A DNA stretch of 61,576 bases, the filler included, from Platydemus manokwari (Eukaryota), in NCBI GenBank assembly GCA_037951405.1. It is 5 parts of 5 records of this genome, joined end to end, with 100 filler letters (N's around TTAATTAATTAA, not from the genome) between each part and the next. Parts side by side here need not be neighbours in the genome. Positions count along the whole stretch, not along the records: positions 28,291 to 41,636 come from JBBMOY011753618.1; 4 more parts are not named here. One strand, written 5' to 3'. Under the pieces are notes generated by a model. It had not been told where the DNA came from and did no database searches. It was given only the letters and a program-made list of their open reading frames with translations. How positions within the stretch are numbered: position 1 is the stretch's first letter; each line of letters opens with the position of its first letter. Of the stretch, positions 1-50,301 are shown one piece after another. A program made the position numbers and the translations under genes.

Positions 1-89
1 ACGTGTGTGTGTGTATGTATGTGTGTGTCTATACAGTTATGGTTATAATTTTAGATGACTGTAAGATTTAATGTTATTAATACATGCAG

Positions 90-8211: not shown

Positions 8212-8617
8212 ATCAATTGAAGAATCTCCAAACCAAAATTAATAAAAAATAAACCAAATATTTGTGTTCTGAATAGTTCTTTACCTGTCACATCCATGCA
8301 AAACCATCTTTTGTTTTAGAAAATTTCGTCCAATTAATTTTTTGACAACAATCTTTGAAATTTACCTCACCTGCTAGAAGGTTGCAGCATTTTAGCCAAT
8401 TGATAACGGTGAAGTATCTTCACACAAAAGCGGAAGAAGTACATCTTGATAAGTATTTCCTACCTAAAAATTAAACAGTATTTAAAATTAATTAAATTAA
8501 AACAAACAAGATCTAATATAAGTAAATGTTTAAAGCACACTAGATTTGTTGAATACGAGCAACTGAAGAATCTCCACCCCAACTTGAATCTATTGAAGAA
8601 TCTCCCCTAAATTTGTT
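8212..8617 (-). mobile_element. Merlin (IS1016-like) DNA transposon deletion derivative, copy 1
   Basis: Aligns by eye with 23520-24040, shares TTGAAGAATCTC subterminal repeats, and encodes an N-terminal transposase remnant VINWLK..LLA..DCC..KDGFAW. Confidence 0.7.
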
Positions 8618-11780: not shown

Positions 11781-12096
11781 TAATGTGATCTTGCAATCAT
11801 TTTGCAATGTGTTCTGTTTGATTTCATTGTGAATATGTTCTATATTACAATAATATATTTCCTTTAAATCAAAGTTATCATTACAATATGGATTATTATA
11901 TAATTAAAATTATAAGAATATTTTAGGAATTTTGCTATATTATTTTATAAAATTGATTAACGATAAACAGTACATTAATAATAATAATAATAATATTTTT
12001 AACAAGGCAATTTATGATTATGGATTTAGAACTGTACCAAGGAAAATTTGATTCAATTTAGTACGAATTTAATTTTCCATCGATGTCAGAAAGGAT

Positions 12097-13803
12097 ATGA
12101 ATAAAAGACTTCAAAAAGCAAAAGTATTTCGACTTAACACTAAGGAAATCGTAGTCGAACAATTCAAATCTTTCGTGAATTTGAAACAAATGATGATAGA
12201 AAATGATCAACATCTTTGGGATTTTAAAAATAAAATACCTTTGAACTATTCTAAACCAAAAAATGATTCCAATATGGTAAAAAATTATATCAATTTCAAG
12301 CCACCTATTAATCATCATTTTGCTGATGTGTTTTCTGAATCCAGCTTGATGACTTATAAAATCAAAGAGATCTTAGAGAAGAATACTTTCAAAAACATGA
12401 CTAGTGCAGTTCATCAATTTGATAAATCAGATAATGCATATTTCTATGCTCGAAGTCGTTTTATTTATACTCCGTTGAATTATGTTAATAAACACTATGA
12501 ATCTATTTTAAATTCCAGCGAAACTTTAAATGGGGTTAAATTACAGAGATTTGTAAGACAATTTGAAGCATTGAATGGTGTTTTGCACATAAAACCAACG
12601 AAAGTATTTTCTGTAAAGCCTAATTTAAGTCCACCAGAGAATGTCAATATCCAAGAAACGACAGTAACAAAACATTATCGTGAAGTATCCGAAATGGTTT
12701 CCAACATACCATATCAGGTAGCTGAAATCAATATGGGGAATATTTCCAAATCTTCTAATATTTTATATTATAAACAATTTAATTTCAATAAAGATCTCCA
12801 ATATGACAACGGTTTAAATAAAATTCTGGAAAAAGATCAAGACGATAAACTAGTAAACCCTTTAAAGATAGATAGCATAAATACGACAAGCCCTGAGAGC
12901 AGATTATCAATATTAAGCGATGGATCAAATAAGAAATTTTTTTTGACAAAAGAAACTGATATCGTCAATGATGATCTAGTTCTATCAAATGATAATGTGG
13001 AATTAAGCAAAGCAGATCAAAGTACATCAGAGCATAAAACTTTATCAATAAATAAAATATCATTTACAAGTGATTTTAAAATCATTCATCCAGTAAAAAA
13101 AGCACAATCGACCAAAAAAATGGGGAAAAGGCATTATGCTAAAAAATCAAAAAGTGAACCAAGAAAGTTTGTGGAACTAAATGATGAAGATTTAGATTGC
13201 TGTTTGCAACGCATTTCCCAAACCTTTTTTGAAAACATAACGAATTTTGATGAATTCATCGATGGAGAATCAATGATAAATGAATCCAATGATTTCAAAC
13301 TATCTATTATTTATACCGAGTTATATATCTTTCTGTCAAATCAAATATTAGAACGATCTTTCTCTGGAAGTCAAAGATATATCGATAATGAATTGAAAAC
13401 TAAAATTATTAAATATTCTGGTAATTTTGGATTTGTTGATGGAATTTGTATAGAAGATGGACTCCAAGACGACGATTATGATCGCCGTGATTCAGACTCG
13501 ATTACGAGAGAATCATTTAAAGCTTTGTCACATATGTATAATTTAAAAACATTAGTCGGTAAATCAATTTTACTTGACAAAGATGAAGATAAGTCGAGAA
13601 TATCGCACGAAACAATTCTAAAAAATTATATATCAAAGATTCGATCTTATACAACGGAAAGTTCGTCAATGATAAGTTCAGATAATTCACTAGATCCAGT
13701 TGATGTCGAACTGATTAAAGCATTTTCGCAACGAATAACGGATGAACTCACTGAATTATCTAACGATAAAAGTTTGAAGACATGGAATTTTGATAATATC
13801 TAA
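12097..13803 (+). CDS. Hypothetical protein, 568 aa, single long ORF, no recognisable domain
   Basis: 1.7 kb stop-free frame in highly AT-rich DNA is very unlikely by chance. In-frame stop at 12070 upstream; AATAAA near 13867 downstream; S/N/K/D-rich middle. Confidence 0.75.
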   Translation: MNKRLQKAKVFRLNTKEIVVEQFKSFVNLKQMMIENDQHLWDFKNKIPLNYSKPKNDSNMVKNYINFKPPINHHFADVFSESSLMTYKIKEILEKNTFKNMTSAVHQFDKSDNAYFYARSRFIYTPLNYVNKHYESILNSSETLNGVKLQRFVRQFEALNGVLHIKPTKVFSVKPNLSPPENVNIQETTVTKHYREVSEMVSNIPYQVAEINMGNISKSSNILYYKQFNFNKDLQYDNGLNKILEKDQDDKLVNPLKIDSINTTSPESRLSILSDGSNKKFFLTKETDIVNDDLVLSNDNVELSKADQSTSEHKTLSINKISFTSDFKIIHPVKKAQSTKKMGKRHYAKKSKSEPRKFVELNDEDLDCCLQRISQTFFENITNFDEFIDGESMINESNDFKLSIIYTELYIFLSNQILERSFSGSQRYIDNELKTKIIKYSGNFGFVDGICIEDGLQDDDYDRRDSDSITRESFKALSHMYNLKTLVGKSILLDKDEDKSRISHETILKNYISKIRSYTTESSSMISSDNSLDPVDVELIKAFSQRITDELTELSNDKSLKTWNFDNI

Positions 13804-14813: not shown

Positions 14814-14913
14814 NNNNNNNNNNNNNNNNNNNNNNNNNNNNNNNNNNNNNNNNNNNNTTAATTAATTAANNNNNNNNNNNNNNNNNNNNNNNNNNNNNNN
14901 NNNNNNNNNNNNN
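14814..14913. other. Artificial contig linker
   Basis: 44 N + TTAATTAATTAA (stops in all six frames) + 44 N; identical at four places. Confidence 0.97.
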
Positions 14914-23494: not shown

Positions 23495-24064
23495 GGATCA
23501 GTTGAAGAATCTCACGCCCCCACAACATTAAGCACTTGAAAATCTCCACTCATAAATTAATAAAAAAAATAAACAAAATATTAAAATATTTGAGCTTATA
23601 TATGAATTCCATTGGCTTATCGAAGTTCAATGAATGATTAACTGTTCTGTGAGTAAGTCCAAGATTTTCCCAGTTCCTTTAGGATCTCCATTTGTCCTTG
23701 TGAATAATGAGCCTAGGTCGTACAATTGCTTGAATAATGAATAAAAGTGTGTCCGCATCTCTTTTATCCACAGTTTACCTCACTTGCTAAAAGGTTATGG
23801 TGTTTTAACCAATTGATAACGAGTAAAGTATCTTCACACAAAATAGAAAGAAGTACATCTTGAGAAGTATTTCGATCCATGGCTAGAAATTAAAGAGTAT
23901 TTAAAATTAATTAAACTAAAACAAACAAGATTTAATATAAGTAGATGTTTAAAACACAATAGATTAATTGAATATGTGCAAATGAAGAATATCCACACCA
24001 ACTTGAATCAATTGAAGAATCTCTCTCCTAGATTTGTTCAGTGGGGAGATTCTTCAATTGATCC
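23495..24064 (-). mobile_element. Merlin (IS1016-like) DNA transposon deletion derivative, copy 2, both ends present
   Basis: TIRs GGATCAGTTGAAGAATCTC / GAGATTCTTCAATTGATCC; 8-bp TSD AATGTTTC / AAGGTTTC (7/8). Transposase remnants INWLKHHNLL and KRDADTLL.IIQ.IVRP..IIH.D.WRS*....LGLTHRTVNHSLNF. Confidence 0.9.
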
Positions 24065-28190: not shown

Positions 28191-28290
28191 NNNNNNNNNN
28201 NNNNNNNNNNNNNNNNNNNNNNNNNNNNNNNNNNTTAATTAATTAANNNNNNNNNNNNNNNNNNNNNNNNNNNNNNNNNNNNNNNNNNNN
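28191..28290. other. Artificial contig linker
   Basis: 44 N + TTAATTAATTAA + 44 N. Confidence 0.97.
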
Positions 28291-28363
28291 ATAAGATCTT
28301 CAATTTAATATTTAAAAATGAAAAGCCAATTTAAAAAAGGCCATTATTTTTGCACCAACCTAA
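28291..28363 (-). mobile_element. Mariner terminal fragment, same family as 14689
   Basis: Near-exact reverse complement of 14689-14761, ending GCACCAACCTAA then TA. Confidence 0.8.
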
Positions 28364-29511
28364 TATTTCAATATATATTTATAAATAACCTTTGTATTAT
28401 CAATCACATAGTTAATACATAGCACCTTTGGAGTCAGGTGTTACTAAAGATTATAATCGTAGTGGAACATGCAAAAGTTGGGATAAAATTTACTATTAAA
28501 ATTAATTGAGTTTAAATTAACCGTTCACTCAAAACTTACTAGAAACTTAGAAACCCCAACAATATATGTGCGACTTCATGGTGGTCCATCGTTTCACATG
28601 AACAGACATCCATTTCCTTTTTAGGATTAAAATGGTAAGGCACATCATGATCAGGCACGCATCAAATTCATTTAAATAAAATGTATAGTCAGCACTCACG
28701 GATCGCAGCATATGAGAAGCCTTGAGAATTTTTGACAACTAAGTTGCGGCATAATAAAAAGACGGGCTGTTCAGTGCACTCAGCTAGTCAGGTAACTGAT
28801 GGAGATTATTTGAGTGAAGAGCTGCAATCCAATAATTGCATGAGTGTAGCGGTTCCTTGGTTTTGAGCTGACGAATATCTTATCATTACTATTGAGAAAG
28901 GGGAAAACGACAACAATATTTTGTATCAGTCGTCGATAAGAGAGGATACAATTCCCAGAACCCCTGGTTTTCTCACAGTTGGACAAAAATCAATTTCGTT
29001 TTTCCTATGTATTCGTATTCTAACATTTTCTAATTTTATTAATTTTCCAATTTGTAACTTTAATTGGATGTTTTGGATCTTTTGAATACCCGGTATGCAA
29101 ACCGTAGTAAGCATACAAAAATAGATAGATCCTCTTATTTTCACAATGAATTATACTCATAATAAATAATGTTTTCTAAACATAATGGTTTTTTTGCCAT
29201 TCCAGATGCAACCAATGGCCCCCGACTCAGGATTTACAAAGTCAATCAAGTAAATTTACATATATTTTTGAAGAATTTGAATTTGAATTTTAATTTCATT
29301 ACGATATACTGTCAGAATAATCATAAGTTTCTATTTAAAAATTAGTATTATCATTTTCTGATTAAGTTATTTTCATTTTACAAATTATCCAAAATAGTCT
29401 TATTAACGATAGATTAAATAAAATTTTCATTTGTAATACAAGAAAATTAAAACTATCACATATAATTGAAAAACAAATTGGGACCAAATTTGATTAAATT
29501 TCTGATTAAAA

Positions 29512-29850
29512 TGTTGGGAGTACCCACCCAACTAACTATTAACTAACACAAACCATATTATTAATTATAACACAATCTATACCCATTTTAACCATTAACT
29601 ATTACAATCCATACCCATGTACAGCACAGCTTACAAATAAAATACAACCCATGTACATAGTAATCGCATTCATACAATATATACACTCTTGACTATGGAT
29701 AAAGCCAAGCCTAAAAGTACCCCCAAAGAGAATCAGGTCTGACGCACAACAATTTTCAATATAAAAGCAAAAGACAATTTGAATGTGTTTTCAATGATCC
29801 TGAAACTTTTATATTAACTTTGTTAAAGGCAAGTGAAACTTTTACATTTG
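29512..29850 (+). mobile_element. LTR-like fragment related to 40267-40638
   Basis: Begins TGTTGGGAGTACCCACCCAA versus TGTTGGGATCCCCACCCAA on the minus strand at 40638; both contain TTGACTATGGA. Right end not defined. Confidence 0.45.
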
Positions 29851-31389
29851 CTCAATTTATATTATGTTGAAATAATTATTCTTGTACACCTTCTTGGTTA
29901 CTATTTTTATATGAAAAAAGCCGGGCGGCAGAATAAGATTTTGGCAGATATAGAAATAAATAAAGTAAAATAATATAAAAAAATAGAATATGAAATCAAA
30001 AATATAAAGGACCTATTTTATTAACAAAAATAAGAAGAGTCAAAATAAAAAGCAGAGGTTGTAAGCATGGCGAAAAAAGTTGCGGGTGTTATGTAGGTAA
30101 CCAAATTTAAAAATTTATTATGGTATAAAATCTGAGTGGTGTACATTGGATACACCACAAAAAATAAAACACTGTACTAGTATGGATAATTACCATAACA
30201 GATCAGCCACAGAGAATTATCATTGCCGAATTTGGAAACTAAACGAAGGTTCGAATTTACGGAGTTATATTCTGGGAATTTCACATCAATTTTTCAAATC
30301 TTAACACTTGTCATAATTGCGCGGAGTAAGCTTTATTTGGTATTATATTGTTTTGTCCGTCATCATATAATTACACCATTAATATTTAATAATAATTTAT
30401 CTAATTTCTCTAGTATGGCATTTTCATAATTGCACATTTATAATTTTATGATTAATAGTAACTATCTAAAATCTGCCAAAATCTATCTTCCATATATTGA
30501 CCACTGCCCGTCCGCTTTCGGATTTCGTCGGCTACTTGCTTTGACAACGTGCTGACTATTGATATAAATTCTTTTTGTTATTAATTCAACTTGTGTTATT
30601 TGTTTTTCTAAATAAATTATTTTATAGCATCTGTCTTGTAGTGGATTTTTCGAACACATAGCATACCGATTATCGATAACTAATGTCATTACTTTATTTT
30701 GAACAAGTTAACATAAGAGTTTAAGTAATCATTAAATTTTTATTAACTTTAGAGTACAGCAATCCACCTATTTTAATCGAATTAAGCTTTCTCATTTTAA
30801 TTAAACTAAATCAGTTAGATTATTACCTTCTTTAACCGAGCCTTTAGAATCTTTTAGCAACTTTTCCGATGGCGTGGTCTTCAGACCCGTTATCGACTTC
30901 CCTTCAGAACCAGTATAAGGTTAAAGCGCAGTCAACATATATAATTATAATCCACCACTTTAACCAGACTATTACTTTAATAAAAATAAAAATTATTAAT
31001 ATATAAATATAAATTTATCCTTATTTAAAAGTGAGTTTGAAATTATTTCTTGTCCTTAAGTTTTTGATGAAAATGATGTTTGTTGAATAATATCAAACTC
31101 TAATTACTTTTTTTTGATATTCCAATTTTATTTATGTTTTATAGTCAAACTTTCTAATTATCGAGAAATTACTTAAATAACATTTAAATACACTCGATTA
31201 TAAAAATGGTTTCACAGTTTTGATTTTATGATTAGGCAATCAGAGGCGGTTTTGATTTTACGTTTCTTTTTGTAGAAAAAATTATAAATTTGTTATATTT
31301 TGAAATTGAAATTTTTTTATTATCAAGTTTTTATTCAGGTTCAATCGCTTTATTATTGAAATCGAAGGTTGCAAGCTTTATTTGCCTGT

Positions 31390-31556
31390 ATCTTTTTTAA
31401 ACATTTAAAATATTATAATTAAAATGTATTACGATATTTTGATTTTTTAAGTAATTGGTAAAAAAAAATATAAGCGATCCTCTGATTATTAGCAGTGCAC
31501 TACTTTTTTCGTCGGAAAATAACATAAGCGGCCTCTTATAATAAGGAACAACACGG
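31390..31556. mobile_element. Partial Tc1/pogo-type MITE related to 34092-34486
   Basis: Ends TTATAATAAGGAACAACACGG-TA and shares ATAAGCG motifs with the 34092 element. Confidence 0.55.
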
Positions 31557-32274
31557 TAATATCCAAAATATATTTCATACTACCATTTATAAGTAAGTTC
31601 TTCAAAACAAATATATTAACAAATAAACTGATGTAAACGTGAAAGAAAACACAATCGAAAAAATCATTCAAAGATTTTATGTCTTACTAACTCCTTAGCA
31701 GATAGTAACTAATTGGCCATGTTTTAGAACAGTTATCTAGTGTTGTATTTTCTAGTTGTGTTTTTAAAATGCTATTTCATTTGTGATTCTCATTGACTGG
31801 TATTATGTGTGCCACTATCGAAAATAGTTCTCGTTTGATTTTTGTGGTTAATTTGCTTATGTTTTTTATATTCTCGACACCGTGGTCTAAAAACCATTGA
31901 AAATAACTCAAAATTATTATTAATTTTTCAAGGCACAAAATTTCCAGATATTTACTTCGAGTCTATATAATCTTTATTTTATTGAAAATGGATTTCGTAA
32001 CAATGATTAACTGAAATAAAACTAAAAGAAAGGTTAGTTTGTTATGATATTACGAGAAGTTTAAATTAAGTAACAAAAGATAGTAAGATTTTTTTATTAG
32101 GATTTTTTTTATAAATTGCTACTAAAAGTTAAGAAAAAATGGTGTGGGTTAGTTTGGGGGCGCTAAGTAATAACTATTCTGAAAAGGGTGCGGTTCGCCA
32201 GAAAAGTTTGGGAATCAGTGGTCTAAATAATAATACATTCTCATATTGATTAATTACTTTGATAAATATTTATA

Positions 32275-32420
32275 AATCCGGATTAACCATCAATTTTAAA
32301 CCTAAAATAAACAAAAACCAATTTTAAATGCAAAATCCGGATTAAACAATTTTATTAACAAGGAATTATGGGTAAAATTCAGGGGACTTAAAAAAAATCC
32401 GGATTAACGGAATCCGGTGA
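32275..32420. repeat. Clustered AAATCCGGATTAA motifs, probable transposon subterminal repeats
   Basis: Three full copies plus one partial AATCCGG in ~145 bp. Confidence 0.6.
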
Positions 32421-33229
32421 CTTTAACGACAAAATGAGCTGATAATTAATAAGCGAGTGATTGGACGAAATCCAAACCACTTTTCATTTAATTGTTCATC
32501 AAAATTATCGTAATAAAATGCATTAAAATTTTTGAAATAGTGATAAAATTAACTTTACTTTGTTTATGATTTCTGGTAGAAAATAAACTCAAATTTCGGT
32601 CGATAGTAATTGGTTTTACATAGTGGTACTCTTCTAATAATAAAAGTGCAAAACTGTGAACGTTTTCTATAAATAATTATGAGGTCTTATTGTGTTGAAT
32701 AATTGTAAGTTTTTTCGGATTTTCTATAATTTCTTTTATACTAATTATCATTTTCCTTTTATAACTAATTACCATTTTTTGTTGTTTTTATATTTTATCC
32801 ATACTGTTTTTGGATTTTCAGTTTCTTTGTATCCTAATTTTAATATCTTTTAATTATTTATTGGTGTGACCACACCTTAGTCCTTTTTTGTATTCCTTTA
32901 CATTCCTTTGTATTCCGTTGTATTTCATTAGATTTGAAATGTAAGTCTAAAGATCTGAAACAAAAGGTAGTTAGTAACGGAAAATGGGCATTTTGACGCG
33001 TTGACCGAGCAGCTGCACCCGGACATTTTGCTTCAATAATTCTAATATTTAAGTTTTCTTTCACCTCGTGTAATTTTTCGAATATCTATTCGATTTTAAT
33101 TTTGGATTTAAACTCATGGAAAGCTGTAAAAAATCTCGGAAGACCAGAATTTTATGGTTATAATATCACATAAATTTATTTTTACTTATCTTTGTTATAA
33201 ATATACCATGAGAAATAGATAGTTCCCTA

Positions 33230-33900
33230 GCAAGTATTTTTACCTTAAAAAGTGGTGAGATACTGGAACCATCTTACATAATATTATTAACTTTGTTGTG
33301 ATGGTTTTGTTCAGTCATTAGGAAGTTTTCTTCGACTCGAAATTTTTCTTCAGGCTGTGTATCTTATTTCTCTACTGAATCTTCTGATTCATTTTTCTGG
33401 GATTGTTTCGAAAACTTGATAGATTTGTTTATTGGATTCGTAGAGTGAATTTGCATTCCCGTCTTCGATTTCATTAAAACCTATTTCCTCTTTATGAATT
33501 TTGGGATGATCTTGTCATCCATATTCCATAGTTTTGTATATCTCGAGAATGTCGTATGCTCTTTGGCATATAGAAGATCTCTTGCAGGATGATTGATTTT
33601 GAGTCAATTTTTCTTTTAATTTATTTAGCCGCTGAAGGCTTTGAACTGCCGTCTTACTTCTGACGAAAAACTAAGGAAGATTTGATTTTAAGTAATGCAA
33701 ATTTTTGTTGCTTTGTAAATTAATGTCACTGAATTTCAAACTCGAGCAGCGAAATGCTATTAAATTTACAGAGCGCATTGTATATTGCAGGATTGTAGAG
33801 GTATAAACCAATTGCCAACATCAATCGTAAATGGATAGTCCTTTAGTGGCAAGATTTCCAACGATGATATCTCGAGAATCTGGGGGTTCACTTTAGAGTG
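33230..33900 (-). mobile_element. Tyrosine-recombinase relic (DIRS/Ngaro-like)
   Basis: Frameshifted pieces in YR order: LRLMLAIG, SLKFSDINL, FVRSKT, IHSLKK, then RW. Confidence 0.45.
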
Positions 33901-34091
33901 AGATTTTCATTTTATTAACATATCTATAACATTATCTATGACTTGAAAAAAAATTCCAATTCTCGAACAATATCTGCTGATTAAATTTTAGTAAACTATT
34001 GGCAATTTTTATCAGATGTTATTAACTGTTGGTTGCATTACCATATTCTTACTTTCGTTTCCTCAAAAATAGTTATCATTAATATCTACTA

Positions 34092-34486
34092 CCGTGTTTT
34101 TCATATTGTAAGCGGTCGCTTATATTTTTTTACCGATTACTTAAAAATCATAAAAAATCATAAATTATTTTTATTATAATATTTAAATGTTTAAAAAAGA
34201 TTTTGAACACTAAATTAATTCCTGTGAATCAAGTTTATCTTTGATAAGTGGTCCTAATTTCTCATTTTTTTGCCATGAAGTTTTCTTCTAATGAAGCTGA
34301 TTTGTCCAGATAGGTAGAATTCAAAGCTTTTTTGGCATAGTTATCATTAATTTTAACCAGCCATTACTAACCCATATTTATAGTTTTTATTTATATAGTA
34401 TTTATATTTACTACCGCTTTTATTCGGAGGATCGCTTATTTTTTTTTCTTATATTTTGGATACCGCTTATAATAGGAAAAACACGG
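34092..34486. mobile_element. Tc1/pogo(Tc2)-type MITE
   Basis: TIRs CCGTGTTTTTC / GAAAAACACGG flanked by TA on both sides. Confidence 0.8.
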
Positions 34487-34705
34487 TAGTAATCATAATT
34501 TTTGGAAATTTTATATTTGAATATTTATTTAGAAGTTTTGAGTTTTTACTAGATTCTTTTGAATTATGTAAATTTATATTTTTAGTACGTAATGATGTTT
34601 TATTAATTTTGAGCTTTTTATAAATATTTGAATATTAGAATAATCAATATCATTGTTCGTAGTTTCTAAAGAACCTTCATTATTATTATTATTGGTACTA
34701 CCGGG

Positions 34706-35517
34706 TGTAGAACACAACAGTTATCGTTAATAAACTGACTTCAAAAACAAAATAAAGTTGCACAAAGTTATATTTAAATAACAATATACAACCTTAATTT
34801 ACACCAACAAGAGCCTAGCCCCTCTTAAAGTTTCGTCAAATAAAATAAAACACGGATCAGGTCCCCTTCACTATCTGAAATACTGACCGTGGAGCTACTC
34901 CTGGCCGTTACTACAGTTACCTGCGTGCGTAAACGGATTATTGGCGATCAAAGATATTCGGGAAACACTGTCCACGAATATCACACGATTAAATTAATCT
35001 ACCTCTACTTGTTACCAATATTCTAACTGTTAATTCCGGTTCTCTTGCTAATCAGTAAAATTCTCTTTGGAATATTCTGGCCTCCTTGTTAATCAAAAAA
35101 ATTTTCTTTTGCAAATTCTGTTAATCGACTGTTGATTACCACCACTTTTACAGTTGCATAACAACACTTGCAGCAAAATTTCCTACCACCGAGTTGACAT
35201 GCACAGTAAACTCCTATACTTAGATCAATATCACCAGAAATTGATCAATAATTACCTTCAAAGAAATTTGGTTACTAAATATTTATTTAATTCAATAAAA
35301 CAATACATATTTTTCTAATAATAATTTTAAATTCTTTATTTATTCGTATTTTTGTTTAATAATTTTTTTCTCATTAATAATTTTATTTTAAAATTATTTT
35401 TCAACTTATTATTTATTTTAAGCAAAATCAATTAATTTTTTTATCTTATTTTTAAACTAACTTTAACTATTCACTTTTAAACTATCTTTTTTATATTTTT
35501 ACATTATGTGCTCTTCA
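34706..35517 (-). repeat. 3' LTR of the Gypsy element
   Basis: Minus-strand TGAAGAGCACA...TGTGTTCTACA (terminal inverted repeat 9/11), directly preceded by a polypurine tract at 35518-35528. Confidence 0.75.
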
Positions 35518-35603
35518 TTTGCCTCCTCAAAATTTTTGAGATTTCCTAATCTCAAAACAATAAAAAAAACTACAAAATACATTTATTAAATCACAAATCA
35601 AAA

Positions 35604-36895
35604 TTATAGTTCGATGTCATCACTCCTGATGTCTGGGGGTTGATTGAGGTCGAACTACGTCTTCGCCTCTTTCCATTTCCTCTTCTTTGCTGGGGTTGAT
35701 CGACTTGCTTGTGAGCTTCCTGGAACCAATAATGCTCCTCTTCTCTCTAGTTCTTCTATAACTTCCTCAAGGGATTGGACCTTTTCTTTTATCTCTGCTG
35801 TTCTATTGGCTTGTGGTTGTTCTTGCGGGCTATTGGCATCTCCTCCTCCCCCACCTTTTGTCTTTCACCTTTTCTCGAGTGTGCCATTCTTACTTAACTT
35901 TGAACTTCAAATTGTCGTAGTCAGTGCATTTCGTATATTTTCATGCGATCTCGTCTTCATCCAGAATGTCTATAGAGTCTGGTGTATCCCATAACTTGCT
36001 AGCCTTTGACGAGTAAATATTTCATTACTCCTTTTCACGCCATCTTCCACGAATATTGGCGCATTGACAGCTCTTGAACGTCAATTGAATCGCTGTGTGA
36101 TTCTCAAAGCTATCAGTTCTTCCAGTACTCTATGACCGATAACTATTGTTCCTCGTAATATTCTATTCACTTCTTTGGTCGACAGTTCATCTTTCTTGCT
36201 ATGAACTGTTTCTTCTATGAGCTTATGTTGGGGTGTTTTGTATTACAAAACCATTGCTGAGAGTAATAACATTGGAGTATATCAATTCTCCTTGATAATC
36301 CAATATATTTACTGTTATCGGAACAAACTCACTGGCAACTTCCGGCTATGCTAATGATACATGGACAAATCGCACTCTTCTCCTTCCTTCCTCGTCATCT
36401 TCATCCTTAGAAAGGATTTGTAGTTTTCTAATTGGAGGCAGTTATTACTCATCTCTTCAAATTTTTCCTTTGACTGACGAGGCATCTTTCCCCTATCAGG
36501 TTGGTTTTTGTCGAATATGGTCAACGACCACATTCCTTTTTTTTCATGCAAGTTCCTAATAGCAATCTTTTTGAGATCCGCACTGGATCCCTCGATCTTA
36601 ACAGTCACATAAGGTATTGTTTTCCACCCATCTCGTGGATGGCAACCTCAATTGCTGTGAGGACGTTGTCGATCTCGATCTCTTCGTGGCCCTCAATTAG
36701 TCCTCCATTGGCCAATTCAGTTTCTTGATGTTCGTTTCGTAGAAACATCCTACGATTCTCCACTACCTTCTCCTTTAGGTAGTTGAGTATGTATTGAACT
36801 CTAGTGATATTAATTTGTCTCCAATGGTTTACATTCATAAATGCTTCGACTCGATTGTACAAGATTCGAGTCTTCACTGATTTTCTGACAGTCAT
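35604..36895 (-). pseudogene. Gypsy accessory ORF B: unknown N-terminal region plus DEDDh (ISG20/REX4-like) exonuclease-fold relic
   Basis: 36380-35930 reads VRFVHVSLA*..PITVNILDYQGELIYSNVIT..FVIQNT / HKLIEE..KEVNRILRGTIVIGHRVLEELIALRI..DILDEDEIA, matching REX4/ISG20 spacing (VSIVD.xG.V.YD.; EV..LLKG.ILVGH...DL..L; EDA.A). Frameshifted. Confidence 0.6.
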
Positions 36896-37023
36896 TTAGC
36901 TTTTGTGTGTTTCTGTAAATTCTCTTGATTTCTTGTTTCTTGGGTATTTTGGGTAGCGCTTTTAGAATTAATTGTAGTTTGTTCATTTTAAAATATAAAT
37001 AATCACTAATATCTGTTTATACT

Positions 37024-38057
37024 TTATTTATAAAGAAACCTATACAATTTTAATTTATACACTAAATACACTATGTGCTGTGTTTTTAACACTGCGTATC
37101 TCGGGTTCTCTCTCTCTTGTCTTGGCATATGCGGTGCCGTTGGTAGCTGACTACAATTTTTGTTGCTATCATTAACATTTCTATCAGGATTACAGTAGTT
37201 ATCATTGCAAATTCTATTATTATTATTAACTGTTCTACGGATCCTGCAAATCCCTTTTTCCTGCTTTGATTCGTTTTCTATTTTTGGTCCGGTACCCATT
37301 CTCTTCAAACGAGTTGGAATGCCAAAAAACTGACTCCGTAGTGACTTTATTTCTCATTTTTCTTCTGTTCCTTTAGACAATCATGGCTTTCATCAATCTC
37401 CTGAATGACCGCCAATCTCTGGTTGTCGTAGGTTTCATTGTCGTAATCGCAGATAATAACGGCGGTATTTTGTCAATGGGTTTGAAATTGAATCCTAGAA
37501 CTGTTATCTCTACTTCTTCATTTTGTTCAACCAAAAATCTGGGTAATTCATTATTCCACCGATTATACCATATATAGGTTTTTATAGGCCTTATAACTTT
37601 CAGTGTCATATCGTATCTCGTATTTTTTTCGTCCAATATCACTACAATATTCACCATTTGAATCTGTATGCATAATTTCGCTCTGGATTCCAAATCCAAA
37701 TTACATTGTATTTAGACACATGTATTTTTACCGTTTCTCATTTCGACTCTGTGATTCTGTTTCGTTTTCCGTGTACGGTCACTTTCGCTGAAAACTACTA
37801 CTTCGAACCAGTAGAATCGTGACTATCTCATATTATTAAAAGAAATCTTTTTCCTGTATTTCCTAAGTAAACTTCGGCTCTGTTTCCTGCTCTTAATAGT
37901 AATGCCATTGACACAAGCGGATCACTGTCGCAATCACAATGCACAGTGATTTTGTGCGTCTGTTTTTCAAAATTAAACTCAGGCATTTTCAGAATTTACT
38001 CTAAATCTTCTTTTGCTTCTGCAGTCAGCATCAATGTGCAATGGGATCCAAAATCAT
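37024..38057 (-). pseudogene. Gypsy accessory ORF A: putative type I membrane (env-position) protein
   Basis: Frameshifted: signal-like ..LMLTAEA, beta-rich region with ISFNNMR*SRFYWFEVVV, Thr/Pro stalk, hydrophobic LIIIIEFAMITTVILIEMLMIA (~37165-37230), then LPTAP..NPRYAVL in the adjacent frame. Confidence 0.5.
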
Positions 38058-38129
38058 TTTTGTTACTTCACTTCTTTTCTCGTAGTTACTGTTGCCACTG
38101 TTTTTGTCCTAGAGCATAGCGCATGTTGG

Positions 38130-38965
38130 CTAGGTTCTATCTCTGTTACTCGTTTACATCTGTATGCACGGACTATCAATGGTCCTTTCTTTTCAATTGT
38201 AAGTTAGTAGGCATCACTTTATTCAGTGTGCAGGCCTTTCTCTGCAACTTTGGAGAGATTTAGTGGTTGCCGGCTATCTACTAATACCGTTCCCCTACCT
38301 TGAACTGGCGAGGCTTTGCTTTTTTATCAAATGCTTCTTTATAGCTCTCCTGGCTATATTTGATTTGTAATCCGGCTCTTCACAAGGTGTTTGCATTCTC
38401 TCTTACATCTCCGTTTTGTAGTCCTTTTCGTCCATATATTGACATGAGGGCTGAACATACTCCATATCTATGGGCATGTTATTATCCTTTAAATACATTA
38501 GATAAAACGATGTCTCCTTTGTCATACTGTGCACCGTGTTCTTGTATGTATATAGGCACGATTCTATGTATCAATATATCTAAATTTCTTTGATTTGTGC
38601 TCGTATAAGAAGCTAACATATATTTTAAAGTATTATTAAATCTTTCTACCATGCCATCTGTCTGAGGTCTAATTGGTGATTCAACTTCATTACGTGGATT
38701 TCCCCAAATATATTGCTCAGGAAGTCCTTTTTTCTGTCTGTCAATATTTTCCCTGGTGCTCCATATCGGAACACTATCCCCTCCACGAATATCTATGTAA
38801 TCGTTGCTGCTTTATGGTTTGGTATCGCGAAAGCTTCTGGCCAACGCGCGAGATAATTAAAAAATACTAAAATGAATCTGTTTCCTTTAGTTGTCTCCGG
38901 CAATGGTCCCATAATATCCATTGTGAATTCCATTGGTTTTGGAATTATATCTATTGGCTGTAGTG
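38130..38965 (-). pseudogene. Gypsy integrase (rve core and C-terminal part), disrupted
   Basis: MDIMGPLPETTKGNRFILV; PEAFAIPNHKAATI; FRYGAPGKILTD; PQTDGMVERFNNTLKYML. Confidence 0.92.
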
Positions 38966-39663
38966 TGTTATATTGTTAAATATATCATAACAAATTTGAC
39001 ATTTTTATTCAAATATTTTTGTTATTATTTGTATTACAATTTTTTTATTTGATTTTCCACGTAATAATAATGTTTTATAAATATTGTTAAATAAGTTTTT
39101 GGTTTTGTATTTTAACTGGCTCTTAAGGGGCTTCAATAACGGGTATGAAGACCTCACTGTTGGTAAATTAAAGATTAGTATTATTAAATCAGTTGATGAC
39201 TTAGTCCTTCTTGATGACACTCAACACTGAACTGGAACGTTGTAATATTAAATTTGTCAATCAATCTCCTCAACCCAATTGACTGATATACTATAATGCA
39301 GTTTAAATTATTACGCTTAAATTATTACGTGAGTTAATTTTTATGAGTTAATTTTTATCGAACTCAAATAAGCATATACGTTTTTAAGAAATAAAACGTA
39401 ACAGTTGAAAAATTTGAACACAAAAAATGATGCAAATAGCCGGCATGTTGCCTCAGCAAGTAACCAGCAGGGTCCGAAGCGGACGGAGGAACGATCTGCA
39501 GAATAAAGAAGAGACTTTTTGGCAAAATTAAAATTAAATATTATTCATATAATTTATCAACTGTTACTAATAACAAATTATTAATAATGTGAAAAAAAAA
39601 TTCATGTGAATTATTTATTGTTAATGATGAATTAAACGTAACTATTACTAAAATGAAGTTGAG

Positions 39664-40240
39664 TGTGATGACACGAAATGAAATATCTCTTACTCAAATA
39701 TTGAATCAAAATGTTATCTTCCTATGAATAATCCTCTTAATGGTTGATTCGAGTAAGTATTTCCAAAATATCCTCTTGATCCAAATTCTTTGATCGATAC
39801 AACAATCCACTTCCAAATCAATTTATAATTCCGATAATATCACTAATGGTTGATTCGAGTGAGTGTTTTACAAAATCTCTTTTTGATTCAAATTTTTTGA
39901 TCGATATAACAATCCGCTTCAATTTATAATTCCGTTAAAATCCCTATGTGGTGTGATGTTGTGGTTGTTTGTAGTGGCTGACTCTGTTTTCAGCTCGGTA
40001 TTTATATCTCACTGTTCCGGCCTCCGACATTCCGTTAATATTTATCTGATTACAAATGTATTATATAATGTACTTTGATTAATATATTTTATTATTTATT
40101 TGTTATAACTTATTAGATATCAGTTTTTATTCTTTAATTCTTTATAAATATTTTCTTCATTATTTATTCTTATTATTTTTATTTTATTATTTATAATGTG
40201 CCAACCTCTCCTCCCCACTTTCTTCCCCCGCTCCGTTACA
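39664..40240 (-). mobile_element. Probable solo LTR containing a ~106-bp tandem duplication
   Basis: Minus strand TGTAACG...CATCACA with a TATAAA near 40000; duplicated unit starts at 39738 and 39844. No TSD found. Confidence 0.5.
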
Positions 40241-40266
40241 TTACATAATTTAATCACTGTTTATGA

Positions 40267-40638
40267 ATGTCAACATCACAAAAGTTTATAAAGATTATTC
40301 AACAATGATACACAAAAGTTTTATAAGAATCATTCATTTACAAATACCAATATAACAATAAAGATTTTTTACACAAGAGTAATATAATTTTCAATATCAA
40401 TAGTTATTAATTGTCAAATAATCAATGCGACTCGACTTAAGCTAGATTGGATTGGGGATTCGGTTTCGGCTAAGTTGATGCGTCCATAGTCAAAGGCATT
40501 CTGTTCTTCGAAAGGCTTTATTTTGTATTATTCTATGCGTGCTACTTATGTATATTTTTTATGTACATGTACACTCGGTGGTGAATATAATTATATATAT
40601 ATATATTGTGGTGTAAGCATTGGGTGGGGATCCCAACA
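40267..40638 (-). mobile_element. LTR-like fragment
   Basis: Minus strand TGTTGGGATC...GTTGACA; related to 29512 copy; no TSD found. Confidence 0.45.
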
Positions 40639-41098
40639 ATATCAGCTGTTGGAGTTAATGTTACTGTTGGAATATACTACGTTTTTAGATTTTCCATAAT
40701 ATTTAAAGTCTGAATGTTTTTAAAAGTTTCATCATTAATCTAGCATTTTGGCTTTGTCAGTTTTATGTTATTATTTTTAATATAGTTTTGTTGGGGTTTT
40801 GGCCAAACTAGTTACTTAAAAACAATTGATTTACATTGAAAAATGTGTGCATGACAGTACGTATGAAATGTGTATTAATTTTTACTGTATTAATTTTTAT
40901 TTTAATCAATGTGTATTTTTATGACCCTCGCATTCTGGAGCGAAGACCTGTTTAAAATATTTATATTTATAATAATCATTATTTATATACGTAAAATAAT
41001 TTTTCCAATAAAATCCCCAATTGAAAACCTGTCGAAATCCTCTAAAATAATAAATTGATTTATAAAATATTAACACGCAATGAGACATCGCGCATTAA

Positions 41099-41348
41099 CA
41101 GCGAAAAATTAATTATCATCTGTTTCTGCGCATGAAAATTCTGTAGCAGAATAAAATATATCACTCGATTAAATTTAATAGAGAGATATTTTCTCTGCCT
41201 AATAAATTTTTTCAGAGAGAATTTCTCTCACTTTAAAATTAAATTTAGTCGCAGATAATATCTGCGAGTGATTCACTGCTTATAAGGCAGTGATTTCAAT
41301 CAACATCGACACTATTAGACACAATTTTTTGGACATAATTCTTCGCTG
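41099..41348. mobile_element. MITE with multiple internal palindromes, TTAA-flanked
   Basis: TTAA-CAGCGAAAAATTA...TAATTCTTCGCTG-TTAA; internal TCGCAGAT/ATCTGCGA and CACTGCTT/AGGCAGTG stems. Confidence 0.7.
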
Positions 41349-41636
41349 TTAATTGATGTTACTATCGCTGCCTGACATTGCATCAATTAGAGAAGAACCA
41401 TCGTTTAACTTCGACGCACTCAAGAAAATCGTCTGGTGCAGAAGATTAATTGTTCCTGTATATGCCCGGCATTTGCTGAAGACCCAAAGTAAGACCATAC
41501 CTGTAAAATCATAATCAATATTATATACCGTATTTCGCTTTACCGTCATACTATAGAGATGTGTCTCAAAACATCTTAAAGGTAAAGGTTCGGCTTCTAG
41601 AGTTGAAGTTTGCAACCGTTTTCTTTCCAGAAGTTG

Positions 41637-41736
41637 NNNNNNNNNNNNNNNNNNNNNNNNNNNNNNNNNNNNNNNNNNNNTTAATTAATTAANNNNNNNN
41701 NNNNNNNNNNNNNNNNNNNNNNNNNNNNNNNNNNNN
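41637..41736. other. Artificial contig linker
   Basis: 44 N + TTAATTAATTAA + 44 N. Confidence 0.97.
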
Positions 41737-43288: not shown

Positions 43289-46200
43289 ATGTCAGAAAGT
43301 AAATACAGAAAAGGAAGACAAAATTCCTTTTATGAACAGCAGCAACCACAACAACAACATCCAATCTTGGCAGTGAAAAATCGATTTTGGTTGAAGGAAT
43401 TAATAAAAGAAGCCATTAAAAACAGCACATTTAGTTCGAAATTAATTGAAGAATATTATTTAGAAATATCAATTCCATACGTAAAGAATGTTTTAAGAGG
43501 AAGTCTCCTTCTGCTTATTACGTATTTATATCTCACAATTTACTGGACATCAACATACAATCCAATGAAAACATATACATTGCTCGGTCAAATTTCGACG
43601 TTATACATCCTTCTGATGTGTTTTACATGGACGCTATTCATCGAGACAAACAGAAACCATGTCAGGATATCATTAGTTGCCTTGCTAACTGTAGTTTTAC
43701 AGAATATGCTTACAAGTTATGACATCAACAGTAAAATGGAGATCAATTACAGTCCAATATTGCAAATGATAATCCTGGTTTTTAATTTCATTCCTTTGAA
43801 TTTTGCTGCCGCCATTTCCATATCACTGCTGACCATTTGTTTCCTTATATTAGCCACAATGATGAGAATCTCTATTTTAAAAATAACTGACAAGCGAGTT
43901 CTTCAAAGTAACACAAGCATTTTCAAAGCATTAACAGACAACCCGGTGTTGCCAAGTGATTTCGATATGATAAGTTATGTTGGAGGACAAGTTTTCCTTT
44001 GGATCGCAGCGTACCTAGCATCATTTTATATGTTCACGTGTAATCGACTGTGGAGACAATCAGCATTTGTTACTCTCGGCGAAAATGTGCAGGCTAAAAG
44101 AAAATGTAAGCACGCAATGAAAGGTCAATTAAGATGGATTGAAGCGATAATGCCGGCAGTAGTTAAGGATGAATACTGGTCTCATAGTCTCGATGTTAAA
44201 GCAAATAAATGGGTCTATATTAAGGCATTTGAAAATGTTAGTATTTTGTTTGCTGACATTGTTGGATTCACGAACATGAGTTCCAATAAAACGGCGCCTC
44301 AAGTTGTGACATTGCTGAATGACTTATTCAATAGATTCGACGAATTATGTAATATCACGAATTGCGAGAAATTAGGAACTCTAGGTGATTGTTACTACTG
44401 TGTTGCTGGATGTCCTATTCCTAGACCAGATCATGCAGTATCTTGCACAGAAATGGGTTTAGGTATGTGTCGCATTATTAAACAGTTCAATAACGATCAT
44501 AAAGAAAATGTCAATATGAGAGTTGGTATTCACACCGGTCGGGTTAATGCTGCAATTATAGGAAAACAGAGATTTCGATTCGATGTATTTTCCAATGATG
44601 TCATCATCGCCAATACAATGGAATCCAGCGGAAAACCAGGCCAAGTTCATATTTCCCAATCGGTTTACGAACTAATTCGACATGCATACAATGTGGAACC
44701 GGGAGAGGATTTGGAAGTCAAACGTGAAGAAGATCATGGAATTGCAGGAACAATATTGAAAAAATCGGCTATAAAAACATATTTCGTAGATCCAAATTCA
44801 TCTCATTTAAAAAAGAAAGGAGAAAAGTTTGGTAAAAAGGGAGAATTTCATGTGATGGATGTCAGAACTGACAATGAAGACTCGGATTCGGAATCGGATT
44901 TTGGTGATGATAGAGATGATAGTTCTGATATGCAACAGGATCGAATAAGCTTTCATAAAAAATCGTATATGGCCAGAATCGATGAGGAGGTCGCGTTTAT
45001 TGAGACATTGCGCTACGATCCCGATCAACAAGTGATTTGTTTCTATGAACCTCCAATAAATATTATAACTCTAATGTTTTATGATAAAGAAGTCGAATGG
45101 CACTTTCAAAACCACACTATCGATCATGTACAAAGCTTGTCATTATATTCAGCTAAGTTGGCACCGATAGTTGAATGTATTGTATCAATAGTTTGCTTGA
45201 TCTTCATTTGTTGTGCTGTGATCCTGTTCTTTCATTTGGATATGGATTCTGTAAAAAACAGTAATTCCGTATTAGGCCTGTTTGGTTTAACTATATCTCT
45301 GACAATCATAGAATTTTGGAAAGCATCAACATATCTAAGTCTGTTATCAAAGAAATTCGAAAAGGTTTTCTACTCATTACTATCTCATCAATTCTATAGA
45401 TCAATTTTTTGTATCTACATGACAATGCTCCCCAGCATTATGTGTTTTACGATGCTTTACAATTGTCATCGATATACGAATGAATATTATTTTCAAGCTC
45501 GATATTTTAGTCTGAATCTTTTCTCTCTTGTAATCGGATCATTGTTTGTTTCGGCTTGGTCGTGGGTGAAAATTGTCGCTTTAGGGATGAATTTCACACA
45601 GTCAATACTTTTTGGAGTATTTCTCACTTGTACATCAGATGACAACAAACAACCTTTAATGCCTTTTTATACATGTTTAGGGGAAATGAAACTTAGTCGA
45701 AGAATATATAGTGATCTTTTGCTGAGAGAGTATTTCTATCAGTATTTATTTACCTTCATAATTCTCATGGCATTGATACGGGAGCGAGAAAGAAATTTGA
45801 GGATTTGGTTTTACGTTTCCAGGGAAGCTGAAATCGGTAGAGAAGAAGCATTGAGAGCAATGCAAAGTTCTCAGGAACTTTTGTATAATATCATACCAAA
45901 ATATGTTTTCGAATATGTCCGACAAAAAGGTGGCGAAAATTTAGAGTTTACAAGCTTCAATTATGCTGTAGCTATACCTAAGGCGGCTGTTGTTTTTGCA
46001 TGCATTAGCAATTTCTTTTCGAAATACTACCGAGAAGACTACAAAGGCGGAGGGAATGCCTTGAAATTACTGCACGATATCATCACAAAATTCGACCAGA
46101 TTCTCATGAATCGAGAATACAAAGATGTGGAGAAAATCAAAACAATAAATGATTGTTACATGTTGGCATCGGGTCTCAATATGTCTGAAGTGGAATTGAA

Positions 46201-46570
46201 TGCAAACAAACAAGAGCATTTGAAAGCTTTGATGAATTACGCTTTCGAGATGCAGAAAATTCTCGAGAATTTCAATGAATTGTACATAATTGGCACTGAT
46301 AAATTTGAGATCAAAATTGGTTACAATTTCGGTCCAGTCACAGCAGGTATTATTGGATCGACAAAACCAATGTATGATATTTGGGGTGACACAGTAAATG
46401 TGTCGAGTAGAATGTATTCAACAGGAAAACCGGGAGAAATCCAAACACCACATTACGTTGCTGATGAGTTAAAGAATGATTTTGTATTTAAGTACAGGGG
46501 TATTATTTTCGTCAAGGGAAAAGGAGATATGCAGACCTATTTATGTTTACATCCAATCAAGAAAAAGTAA
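43289..46570 (+). CDS. ADCY9: Membrane adenylate cyclase, type 9-like, intronless CDS (1093 aa)
   Basis: TM block-C1a-TM block-C2a. C1a SILFADIVGFTNMSS and CEKLGTLGDCYY (both metal Asp), RFDVFSNDV; C2a VEKIKT and YDIWGDTVNVSSRM (K, D, N, R for ATP use). TLGDCYY and SNDV forms point to AC9. Confidence 0.95.
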   Translation: MSESKYRKGRQNSFYEQQQPQQQHPILAVKNRFWLKELIKEAIKNSTFSSKLIEEYYLEISIPYVKNVLRGSLLLLITYLYLTIYWTSTYNPMKTYTLLGQISTLYILLMCFTWTLFIETNRNHVRISLVALLTVVLQNMLTSYDINSKMEINYSPILQMIILVFNFIPLNFAAAISISLLTICFLILATMMRISILKITDKRVLQSNTSIFKALTDNPVLPSDFDMISYVGGQVFLWIAAYLASFYMFTCNRLWRQSAFVTLGENVQAKRKCKHAMKGQLRWIEAIMPAVVKDEYWSHSLDVKANKWVYIKAFENVSILFADIVGFTNMSSNKTAPQVVTLLNDLFNRFDELCNITNCEKLGTLGDCYYCVAGCPIPRPDHAVSCTEMGLGMCRIIKQFNNDHKENVNMRVGIHTGRVNAAIIGKQRFRFDVFSNDVIIANTMESSGKPGQVHISQSVYELIRHAYNVEPGEDLEVKREEDHGIAGTILKKSAIKTYFVDPNSSHLKKKGEKFGKKGEFHVMDVRTDNEDSDSESDFGDDRDDSSDMQQDRISFHKKSYMARIDEEVAFIETLRYDPDQQVICFYEPPINIITLMFYDKEVEWHFQNHTIDHVQSLSLYSAKLAPIVECIVSIVCLIFICCAVILFFHLDMDSVKNSNSVLGLFGLTISLTIIEFWKASTYLSLLSKKFEKVFYSLLSHQFYRSIFCIYMTMLPSIMCFTMLYNCHRYTNEYYFQARYFSLNLFSLVIGSLFVSAWSWVKIVALGMNFTQSILFGVFLTCTSDDNKQPLMPFYTCLGEMKLSRRIYSDLLLREYFYQYLFTFIILMALIRERERNLRIWFYVSREAEIGREEALRAMQSSQELLYNIIPKYVFEYVRQKGGENLEFTSFNYAVAIPKAAVVFACISNFFSKYYREDYKGGGNALKLLHDIITKFDQILMNREYKDVEKIKTINDCYMLASGLNMSEVELNANKQEHLKALMNYAFEMQKILENFNELYIIGTDKFEIKIGYNFGPVTAGIIGSTKPMYDIWGDTVNVSSRMYSTGKPGEIQTPHYVADELKNDFVFKYRGIIFVKGKGDMQTYLCLHPIKKK

Positions 46571-49427: not shown

Positions 49428-50301
49428 ATGGAATTAGAGAGTATTGTAGCGAATACCGTCTATATAAAAGCCAAAGAAAGTACATGATATTAATATTACC
49501 ATATATATGCCATCTAGATATTTATTTATCCATTAAAACCATTCAGGCGGATACGGAAAGGATAAAGGTCGCAGTAGAAAATGGAAAGAAATTCTCAAAT
49601 TTCCCCATATTTCTCAATGTATAGATCTTGCAGAGAAATTAACGGGTATTTGTGTTTTATTCTATTTTTTGTTTTTTTGTTTTTTTCTAAAATATCTTTT
49701 AGATATTTCTTTCAATTATATTGTCATGAATCAACCAATTGGCAATCGATTGTTTTGGGAATTTTGTAAATCGAAAGAAAATCTCAAAGATTTGGTGATT
49801 TTCCTCGACAAAGTGGTACGTATATTAATATTGAATATCATTTCCTTCGGAAGATCAATTGTTTTTATCCGTTATTTTTATAGGAAACGTTTGATCTGTC
49901 TTTGGCAGAAGACCGAAAATCCATTGCGGGCACAATTTTGTTGAATCATTTCGGAGTTAATGTGAGGATTTTTTATTTTTCTCAAAAGATTCCCATTATC
50001 ACAGCCTTGTTTGGTTCGTTAAGATGAATAAGTTTCTTCCAGAAATTGTTGATAATAAATTGCTTAAATCTATTGAAATGAAATTGAGACAAATCGATGA
50101 TGTGAAAAATGAAGTGGAAAAGGATTTGTTTGACAAAGTGACAGAGTGATTTCTTTTTTTTTATTTAAGCTCAAATTTTATTGAGACCTTTTTACAATTC
50201 TCATAAAGGGCAGTCAGGAACCATTTAAGGAAACAACCTTTCAATGACTTCCTCGATTCTATTTATTACAAAAGATATCTCCAATGGAAATGGCTTGAAA
50301 T
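49428..50301 (+). CDS. G protein-coupled receptor kinase, GRK4/5/6 subfamily, exons 1-6 (N-terminus and RH domain); kinase exons not in this contig
   Basis: Exons 49428-49479, 49547-49645, 49703-49815, 49884-49961, 50024-50145, 50209-50301: [60 protein letters not shown]. Confidence 0.93.

Follow-up and report, generated by a model that had tools for sequence, protein, structure and literature searches.

Two putative accessory reading frames between integrase and 3′ LTR in a decayed Gypsy-type retrotransposon of Platydemus manokwari

We analysed a window of 61,576 nucleotides (the whole stretch, filler included) from the genome assembly of Platydemus manokwari (GCA_037951405.1), in which positions 34,706-38,965 hold, on the minus strand, the 3′ part of a Gypsy-type retrotransposon. 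Between its integrase and its probable 3′ long terminal repeat (LTR) this element carries two broken open reading frames (ORFs), here called ORF A and ORF B, which are predicted to encode a membrane protein and a protein with a domain of the REX4/ISG20 group of DEDDh exonucleases. Accessory genes decide the spread of LTR elements between cells and their evasion of small-RNA silencing, and outside env we know of almost no LTR-element accessory gene with a known job. The window has the base composition of AT-rich, animal-type DNA (about 27% GC) and contains four identical joins, each consisting of 44 N, TTAATTAATTAA and 44 N (14,814-14,913, 28,191-28,290, 41,637-41,736 and 52,497-52,596). Because it was assembled from separate contigs, pieces on either side of such a spacer may not adjoin in the genome. 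The Gypsy-type element sits in the piece at 28,291-41,636.

Layout of the element and its related copies

A decayed Gypsy-type integrase, truncated at its 5′ side and comprising the core and the C-terminal part, occupies positions 38,063-38,965 of the minus strand, as read from Pfam rve_3, tblastx and the six frames. The match to rve_3 (E 6.7e-4) lies below the curated cut-off, and tblastx against the integrase of NZ_CP087956.1 (L002, positions 1-5,332; genes protease (PR), reverse transcriptase (RT), RNase H and integrase (IN)) returned three blocks in collinear order, 41-53% identical (E 4e-21). The integrase core typical of Ty3/Gypsy elements (Metaviridae) is present, and the final integrase frame closes with a TAA at 38,065-38,063. 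That integrase is the last pol domain agrees with the Ty3/Gypsy order PR-RT-RNase H-IN, the upstream half of which is absent from the contig. A search of the PDB with the integrase gave 0 matches. In the 2.7 kb upstream of 38,965 the six frames contained no Pfam match, no gag and no RT, and tblastx of the window produced no significant RT block. This copy of the element is 5′-truncated at about 38,965. The L002 record is filed as a plasmid of Wolbachia; its gene content (retropepsin, RT, RNase H, integrase-like) marks it as a Gypsy retrotransposon fragment, probably derived from the moth host.

At the other end of the element, an imperfect purine-rich tract resembling a polypurine tract (PPT; 35,504-35,528, minus strand) lies directly before a probable 3′ LTR of 798 bp (34,706-35,503, minus strand), which was identified from its TGT...ACA ends and from contig depth and whose start we infer. 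It runs from TGTAAAA at 35,503 to TTCTACA at 34,706, six of the seven terminal bases being complementary. As the copy is 5′-truncated and neither a second (5′) LTR in the window nor a target-site duplication was found, the LTR was called from a single end of one copy. The distance from the end of the integrase (38,063) to the purine tract is 2,535 bp, in agreement with the approximately 2.5 kb given between integrase and PPT/LTR in an earlier note on this DNA.

This interval is tightly packed. Reading along the minus strand, the integrase stop at 38,063 is followed after 5 bp by ORF A (ATG at 38,057, stop at 37,086), after another 99 bp by ORF B (ATG at 36,986, stop at 35,604), and then by 100 bp that end in the purine tract, before the LTR. 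Both ORFs lie on one strand, start with AAAATG, have their own ATG and stop and are intronless. The spacers are AT-rich, with 18% GC in the 99 bp between ORF A and ORF B (36,987-37,085, minus strand) and 24% GC in the 100 bp between ORF B and the LTR; the former contains AATAAA, TATAAA and AG dinucleotides and is a candidate promoter or splice acceptor. Four stop-free stretches of at least 80 aa were counted on the element strand of the cargo region, a number reached in none of 500 shuffles (shuffle mean 0.34). The opposite strand has three such stretches, so this count alone does not settle the strand. By our own reading of the one copy, ORF A is broken by four frame changes (near 38,050, 38,032, 37,841 and 37,410) and six stops, and ORF B by four frame changes (near 36,890, 36,623, 36,423 and 36,250) and seven stops. 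The proposal of the earlier note that the interval holds two decayed ORFs of the same strand, which are neither gag nor pol nor a recognisable fusogen, was confirmed by this reading and by the searches described below.

One public sequencing run, X1, contains the stretch (0.87 of its words), and no RNA run that contains it was found. X1 is probably the source sample, and its contigs are therefore not independent evidence. Altogether 1,847 X1 contigs align to positions 33,500-40,500 at 80% likeness or more, with 152 at 99% or above, 279 at 95-99%, 612 at 90-95% and 804 below 90%. Summed contig depth, which adds up unlinked short contigs and is not a copy number, is 166-818 over 36,074-39,115, which takes in the integrase, ORF A and ORF B up to two thirds of its length, and 50-64 over 35,606-36,073, the final 470 bp of ORF B. 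At the LTR it is 788-1,072 over 34,904-35,605 and 323 over 34,670-34,903. Four listed contigs identical to the locus have a depth of 9-17. The element is thus a dead, multi-copy Gypsy-type retrotransposon remnant of which only the 3′ part is present. Both flanks (39,116-39,583 and 33,968-34,435) consist of other abundant repeats with a summed contig depth of about 680-2,070, and one of them adjoins the 5′ break.

Among the 15 joints listed out of 82, two (37,993-38,338 and 37,615-38,925) link ORF A to the integrase and one (36,682-37,139) links ORF B to ORF A, all in diverged contigs. Four joints have a depth of 18.5, the same as that of a contig of 1,640 bases whose two listed pieces contain 18 and 23 differences, and we infer that this contig and the four joints represent one diverged copy spanning ORF B, ORF A and the integrase. 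The joints in diverged contigs, together with the tight spacing, make a nested insertion unlikely. Since many related copies extend over both ORFs and three joints link the parts, the cargo is probably a family trait, and a family-wide linkage of the two ORFs appears to us highly probable. The earlier note had pointed to the possible absence of the ORFs from other copies; related X1 copies appear to carry both. Of the 40 differences listed among 931, 19 fall in assignable frames, at codon positions 1, 2 and 3 in 6, 10 and 3 cases. Sixteen of 19 differences at positions 1 and 2 is the pattern expected from neutral decay of the copy, not from selection.

ORF B and ORF A

ORF B (35,604-36,986, minus strand, by frame reading) would encode about 460 aa, made up of an N-terminal part of 200 aa, a DEDDh-like domain, a Gly/Gln-rich linker and a coiled-coil-like tail with basic residues resembling a nuclear localization signal (NLS). 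The domain (35,920-36,375, minus strand) is of the REX4/ISG20 exonuclease type with non-canonical catalytic positions, and was recognised by homology through an intermediate protein and by fold matching. The window alone reached ISG20L2 at no better than E 1.3. When the main frame of ORF B was compared with 1,835,955,588 representative proteins, the sole match was P0002 (E 9.7e-4), an unbroken singleton of 168 aa from a 593-bp ENA contig. Searched back against the window by tblastn, P0002 aligned to 36,290-35,997 (33% of 100 aa, 46.6 bits) and, in the adjacent frame, to 36,324-36,262 (52% of 21 aa, 27.7 bits); the best of 100 shuffles reached 26.6 bits. P0002 in turn matched ISG20 (E 2.3e-4), ISG20L2 (E 9.9e-4) and, weakly, SDN1, and a profile of P0002 and the window piece matched ISG20L2 at E 5.4e-6. 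Its Atlas model (pLDDT 0.75) superimposes on REX4-like RNase_T clusters with TM scores of 0.77-0.80 (0.79 among them) over about 150 residues; a single-sequence AlphaFold model of P0002 had a pLDDT of 32. Scaffold positions around Exo II and in the strand after Exo I are conserved with ISG20/REX4. By way of P0002, the ORF B domain can thus be assigned to the REX4/ISG20 group with its DnaQ-like (DEDDh) fold, and this assignment is well supported.

No cellular REX4/ISG20 protein matched ORF B at E 1e-3, P0002 (33%) being closer, and a word-indexed search gave no match for ORF B among proteins of 253-807 aa. The N-terminal 200 aa matched nothing, and two pieces of this part gave nothing below E 0.2 in the PDB. 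A reading of the N-terminal half as a degenerate RNase H was unsupported (0.4 bits, with 81 of 300 shuffles scoring as high); this test is weak, as the profile was built from 66 RNases HI of the E. coli type and gave a genuine Gypsy RNase H no more than 5.3 bits. The tail contains a heptad-like stretch, and its NLS-like basic motif, a pattern picked post hoc, occurred in 17 of 1,000 shuffles. Among phages no match for ORF B was found, and P0002 gave 10 DnaQ-like matches at E 3-4. Viral contigs gave no match for ORF A, the integrase, P0002 or the motif pattern, and prokaryote genomes gave none for P0002. In a metagenome scan one of 172 stretches, L001, matched by chance, in a bacterial protein. 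We take this protein to be a MoeA relative from its resemblance.

The catalytic residues of ISG20 are D11, E13, D94, H149 and D154 (PMC9157404). In an ungapped register the corresponding positions of ORF B are H (36,363), S (36,357), E (36,119), T (35,954) and N (35,939), none of them canonical, and P0002 has Q, F and Y at the three positions that it covers. In place of the Exo I motif D-x-E this register thus gives H-x-S in the ORF B copy, outside the coverage of P0002. The Exo II Asp is Glu in the window and Gln in P0002; the change from D to Q or E was also seen in an alignment with four DnaQ-type proteins, and the Exo II register is firm. At Exo III, P0002 has F/Y or H/F depending on the register, the MAFFT alignment keeping the His but not the Asp. 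With these catalytic positions (H/S/E/T/N in ORF B and Q/F/Y in P0002), ORF B appears somewhat more likely to be a pseudo-nuclease, having lost catalysis already in active copies, than a decayed active enzyme. The suggestion of the earlier note that a DEDDh fold and a membrane-anchored ORF occur in one Gypsy element was borne out, whereas its description of the former as an RNA-processing nuclease was not, given these residues. P0002 itself, a REX4/ISG20 fold without the acidic residues of Exo II and Exo III, is a candidate pseudo-nuclease family.

ORF A (37,086-38,057, minus strand) was assigned from frame reading and hydropathy and is predicted to encode a type I membrane protein of about 320 aa. 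The reading begins with a weak signal-like start that is broken twice; over its whole length it has 8 Cys, a single N-glycosylation sequon and a stretch rich in Thr. An ectodomain of about 260 aa is predicted to be beta-rich. A transmembrane-like segment at 37,143-37,229 (minus strand), interrupted in this copy by two Glu, is followed by a short basic tail. This segment contains the sole 19-mer above 2.0 in three frames (Kyte-Doolittle 2.48, reached by 0 of 300 shuffles). Codon bias points in the same direction: T occupies the second codon position in 19 of 29 codons, versus 4 and 4 at the other positions, and still in 14 of 24 codons when the ATA run is left out (p 0.00035).

No homologue of ORF A was found in Pfam, PHROG, the PDB, the Atlas, viral contigs or, by word-indexed search, among proteins of 30-477 aa, the searches of Pfam, PHROG and the PDB being weak on decayed pieces; the library of 1.84 billion proteins was searched with ORF B, not with ORF A. 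The best Atlas score of an ORF A piece (0.75) is uninformative, and its best PDB match, a bacterial Ig-like receptor-binding domain (E 0.076), is not significant. In envelope proteins of the F type, which have about 600 aa, the fusion peptide is separate from the anchor (PMC5408684). ORF A, with about 320 aa and one hydrophobic 19-mer, is short and has no second hydrophobic segment, which argues against an F-type env identity. ORF A may still have remote homology to a fusogen.

Known elements and possible functions

A close parallel is found in the Juno and Vesta LTR elements of bdelloid rotifers, whose ORF3 encodes DEDDy, GDSL, transmembrane or coiled-coil proteins (Rodriguez, Kenefick, Arkhipova 2017; PMC5408684). 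Like the present element these are Gypsy-like and carry non-env cargo after pol, including a nuclease of the DEDD superfamily and short membrane ORFs. The rotifer nuclease is an RNase D-like DEDDy enzyme with intact residues (DEED) encoded in one ORF3, and a fusion of DEDDy and GDSL occurs once (PMC5408684). In contrast, the P. manokwari element has a REX4/ISG20-type DEDDh domain with non-canonical residues, preceded by a distinct ORF for a type I membrane protein. ORF B is therefore not a rotifer-type DEDDy ORF3: its nearest matches are RNase_T, REX4 and ISG20, its residues are non-canonical, and the cargo comprises two ORFs. The word "DEDDh" does not occur in PMC5408684. ORF B is related by domain homology, via P0002, to ISG20, ISG20L2 and REX4 (PDB 1WLJ and 7YW5; PMC9157404). 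It differs from ISG20/REX4 in its catalytic positions and in that the domain lies inside a 460-aa retroelement ORF with an unmatched N-terminus and a basic tail. A DnaQ-like exonuclease is already listed as a known accessory domain, with the rotifer work cited among others (PMC6338049).

A metazoan survey of Ty3/gypsy env genes distinguished F-type and gB-type classes (Chary and Hayashi; PMC13524379). ORF A shares with these the env position, a signal-like start and a C-terminal anchor, but is considerably shorter; no similarity to F or gB and no separate fusion peptide was detected, and a fourth ORF comes after it; the word "exonuclease" is absent from the available text of the survey. The sORF2 of MDG1-group elements is likewise an accessory transmembrane protein, other than env, encoded by Gypsy elements (Voichek et al., PMC11952523). 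It is a short FAST-like protein, unlike ORF A with its predicted ectodomain. The giant planarian Gypsy elements Burro/GYPSM1 are also invertebrate and rich in accessory domains, but their cargo lies in or before the giant polyprotein and env lies between gag and pol, and the available text names no 3′ cassette of a membrane protein and a DEDDh domain (PMC6431247). Literature searches, which lay outside subscription papers, supplements, Repbase and Dfam, returned no report of a DEDDh/REX4-type cargo or of its pairing with a membrane ORF. Nuclease and membrane cargo are thus already known separately from rotifer elements, the nuclease being of the DEDDy type, whereas a DEDDh cargo and the pairing were not found in print.

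We see about an even chance that the element belongs to a family with a two-gene cassette after integrase, in which ORF A encodes a surface protein and ORF B a non-cutting RNA-binding domain. The family would then have four ORFs in the order gag, pol, A and B, the last two being made from spliced or internally started (subgenomic) RNAs, for which the TATAAA, AATAAA and AG motifs of the spacer could serve. ORF A would be a single-pass protein at the surface of the cell or in the particle membrane and would act in attachment or membrane targeting, not as a classical fusogen; a role in cell-to-cell spread is rather doubtful. ORF B would bind the RNA of the element, probably in the nucleus in view of the NLS-like tail, and shield or route it. 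A model for a DEDD fold as an RNA binder of small-RNA pathways is provided by Maelstrom and EXD1, named as DEDD derivatives that are inactive but still bind RNA (PMC5408684); these are host proteins of other DEDD branches. By this analogy ORF B might shield RNA 3′ ends from host exonucleases or from small-RNA trimming, a suggestion that we make tentatively and consider somewhat unlikely. It is improbable, though conceivable, that the whole represents a virus-like Gypsy lineage that combines an attachment protein outside the F and gB env classes with a disarmed ISG20/REX4-like domain used as a decoy or RNA shield against exonuclease and piRNA defences. If the proposed cassette is real, ORF A would be a third kind of surface protein, and the REX4/ISG20-type domain would have been captured independently, from a different DEDD branch. 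A dead domain would argue that retroelements want RNA binding, not cutting, from DEDD folds, and the decoy or shield role, if true, would mean that a retrotransposon has converted a nuclease fold of antiviral type to counter-defence.

The same cassette could instead carry, in active copies, a working 3′-5′ exonuclease that trims the ends of element RNA or cDNA or destroys RNA that triggers silencing, its residues having been lost by decay. This was the view of the earlier note, and the parallels are arenavirus ExoN and the rotifer DEDDy ORF3; viral ExoN domains have been captured many times (PMC7968707). The copy is clearly decayed, as the 16 of 19 differences at codon positions 1 and 2 attest, the Exo II residue is still acidic, an E in place of D, a replacement that is tolerated in rotifer ORF3s (PMC5408684), one reading of Exo III across frame changes retains both His and Asp, and abundant copies differ in the E13 codon. 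This explanation however requires four non-conservative changes at five catalytic positions although the aligned relatives are mostly 80-95% alike (1,416 of 1,847), and in the unbroken P0002 the Asp is missing from Exo II and, whichever of the two registers is used, from Exo III. We therefore regard it as unlikely. It is less probable still that ORF A is a shortened or new fusogen equivalent to env and the element an infectious, errantivirus-like agent with ORF B as an accessory. The position after pol, the signal-like start, the Cys residues, the anchor and the basic tail would suit such a protein, the spread of MDG1-group elements in Drosophila is mediated by short membrane ORFs other than env (PMC11952523), and a role in spread has been suggested for the membrane ORFs of rotifer Vesta4 and Vesta6c (PMC5408684). 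Yet ORF A has half the length of rotifer F-type env (about 600 aa), one N-glycosylation sequon and a single strongly hydrophobic 19-mer in three frames, and so no separate fusion peptide; nor did it match Pfam, PHROG or the PDB, searches that are weak on decayed pieces. The least probable explanation, which we consider very unlikely, is that the 2.5 kb, either passively amplified or present at this locus only, represent a nested insertion or pieces of host genes (an exon for a membrane protein and one of REX4) that were taken up neutrally. No intact copy was found, depth was summed over unlinked short contigs and the tail of ORF B is nearly unique to the locus, all of which would fit passive cargo. 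The distances of 5 bp from the integrase stop to ORF A and of 100 bp from ORF B to the LTR, the two intronless ORFs on one strand with their own ATG and stop, and the diverged contigs that join the parts in order speak against it, as does the fact that P0002 (33%) is nearer to the domain than are the REX4/ISG20 proteins of cells, none of which matched at E 1e-3.

Several observations weigh against the proposed cassette of a surface protein and a non-cutting RNA-binding domain. Because the copy appears to drift neutrally (16 of 19 differences at codon positions 1 and 2), single residues in it are unreliable, and the Exo I positions were reached by extending the alignment over 19 residues without gaps. 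The register of Exo III is ambiguous, as the window allows three readings: T/N in the ungapped register, H/T by MAFFT and, solely when frame changes are crossed, H/D. In abundant copies the codon at the E13 position has a different first base, and these copies do not align at 80% over 35,606-36,073, so that the Exo III region and the tail differ there. P0002, which is encoded on a contig of 593 bp, may have a source other than a retroelement. For ORF A, a single-sequence AlphaFold model of a 147-residue piece is all-beta but has a pLDDT of 36, and a fold search with it gave generic beta-sandwiches (best Z 4.8, 0 at Z of at least 5), which is uninformative. Each of the joints that link the parts is a single contig with 37-40 letters on its short side at 80% likeness, and the flanks are likewise repeats of high depth. 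Among the X1 contigs no intact or full-length copy was found, and the case rests on one decayed copy.

Other features of the window

An unbroken ORF of 1,093 aa at 43,289-46,570 (plus strand) contains two adenylate/guanylate cyclase domains (Pfam E 6e-101) and corresponds to an intronless membrane adenylate cyclase; this nearby gene fits an animal host. A histidine phosphatase exon lies at 60,745-61,149 (minus strand; His_Phos_2, E 3e-8) and presumably belongs to a MINPP1-like gene. Positions 49,537-49,944 (plus strand), without a Pfam match, resemble what we take to be an exon of a G-protein-coupled receptor kinase. A stop-free frame of 576 aa at 12,073-13,803 (plus strand) has no Pfam match, and a search of the window against Rfam gave no match. 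A repeat of 250 bp occurs in two copies that are 83-90% alike (8,361-8,604 and 23,774-24,023).

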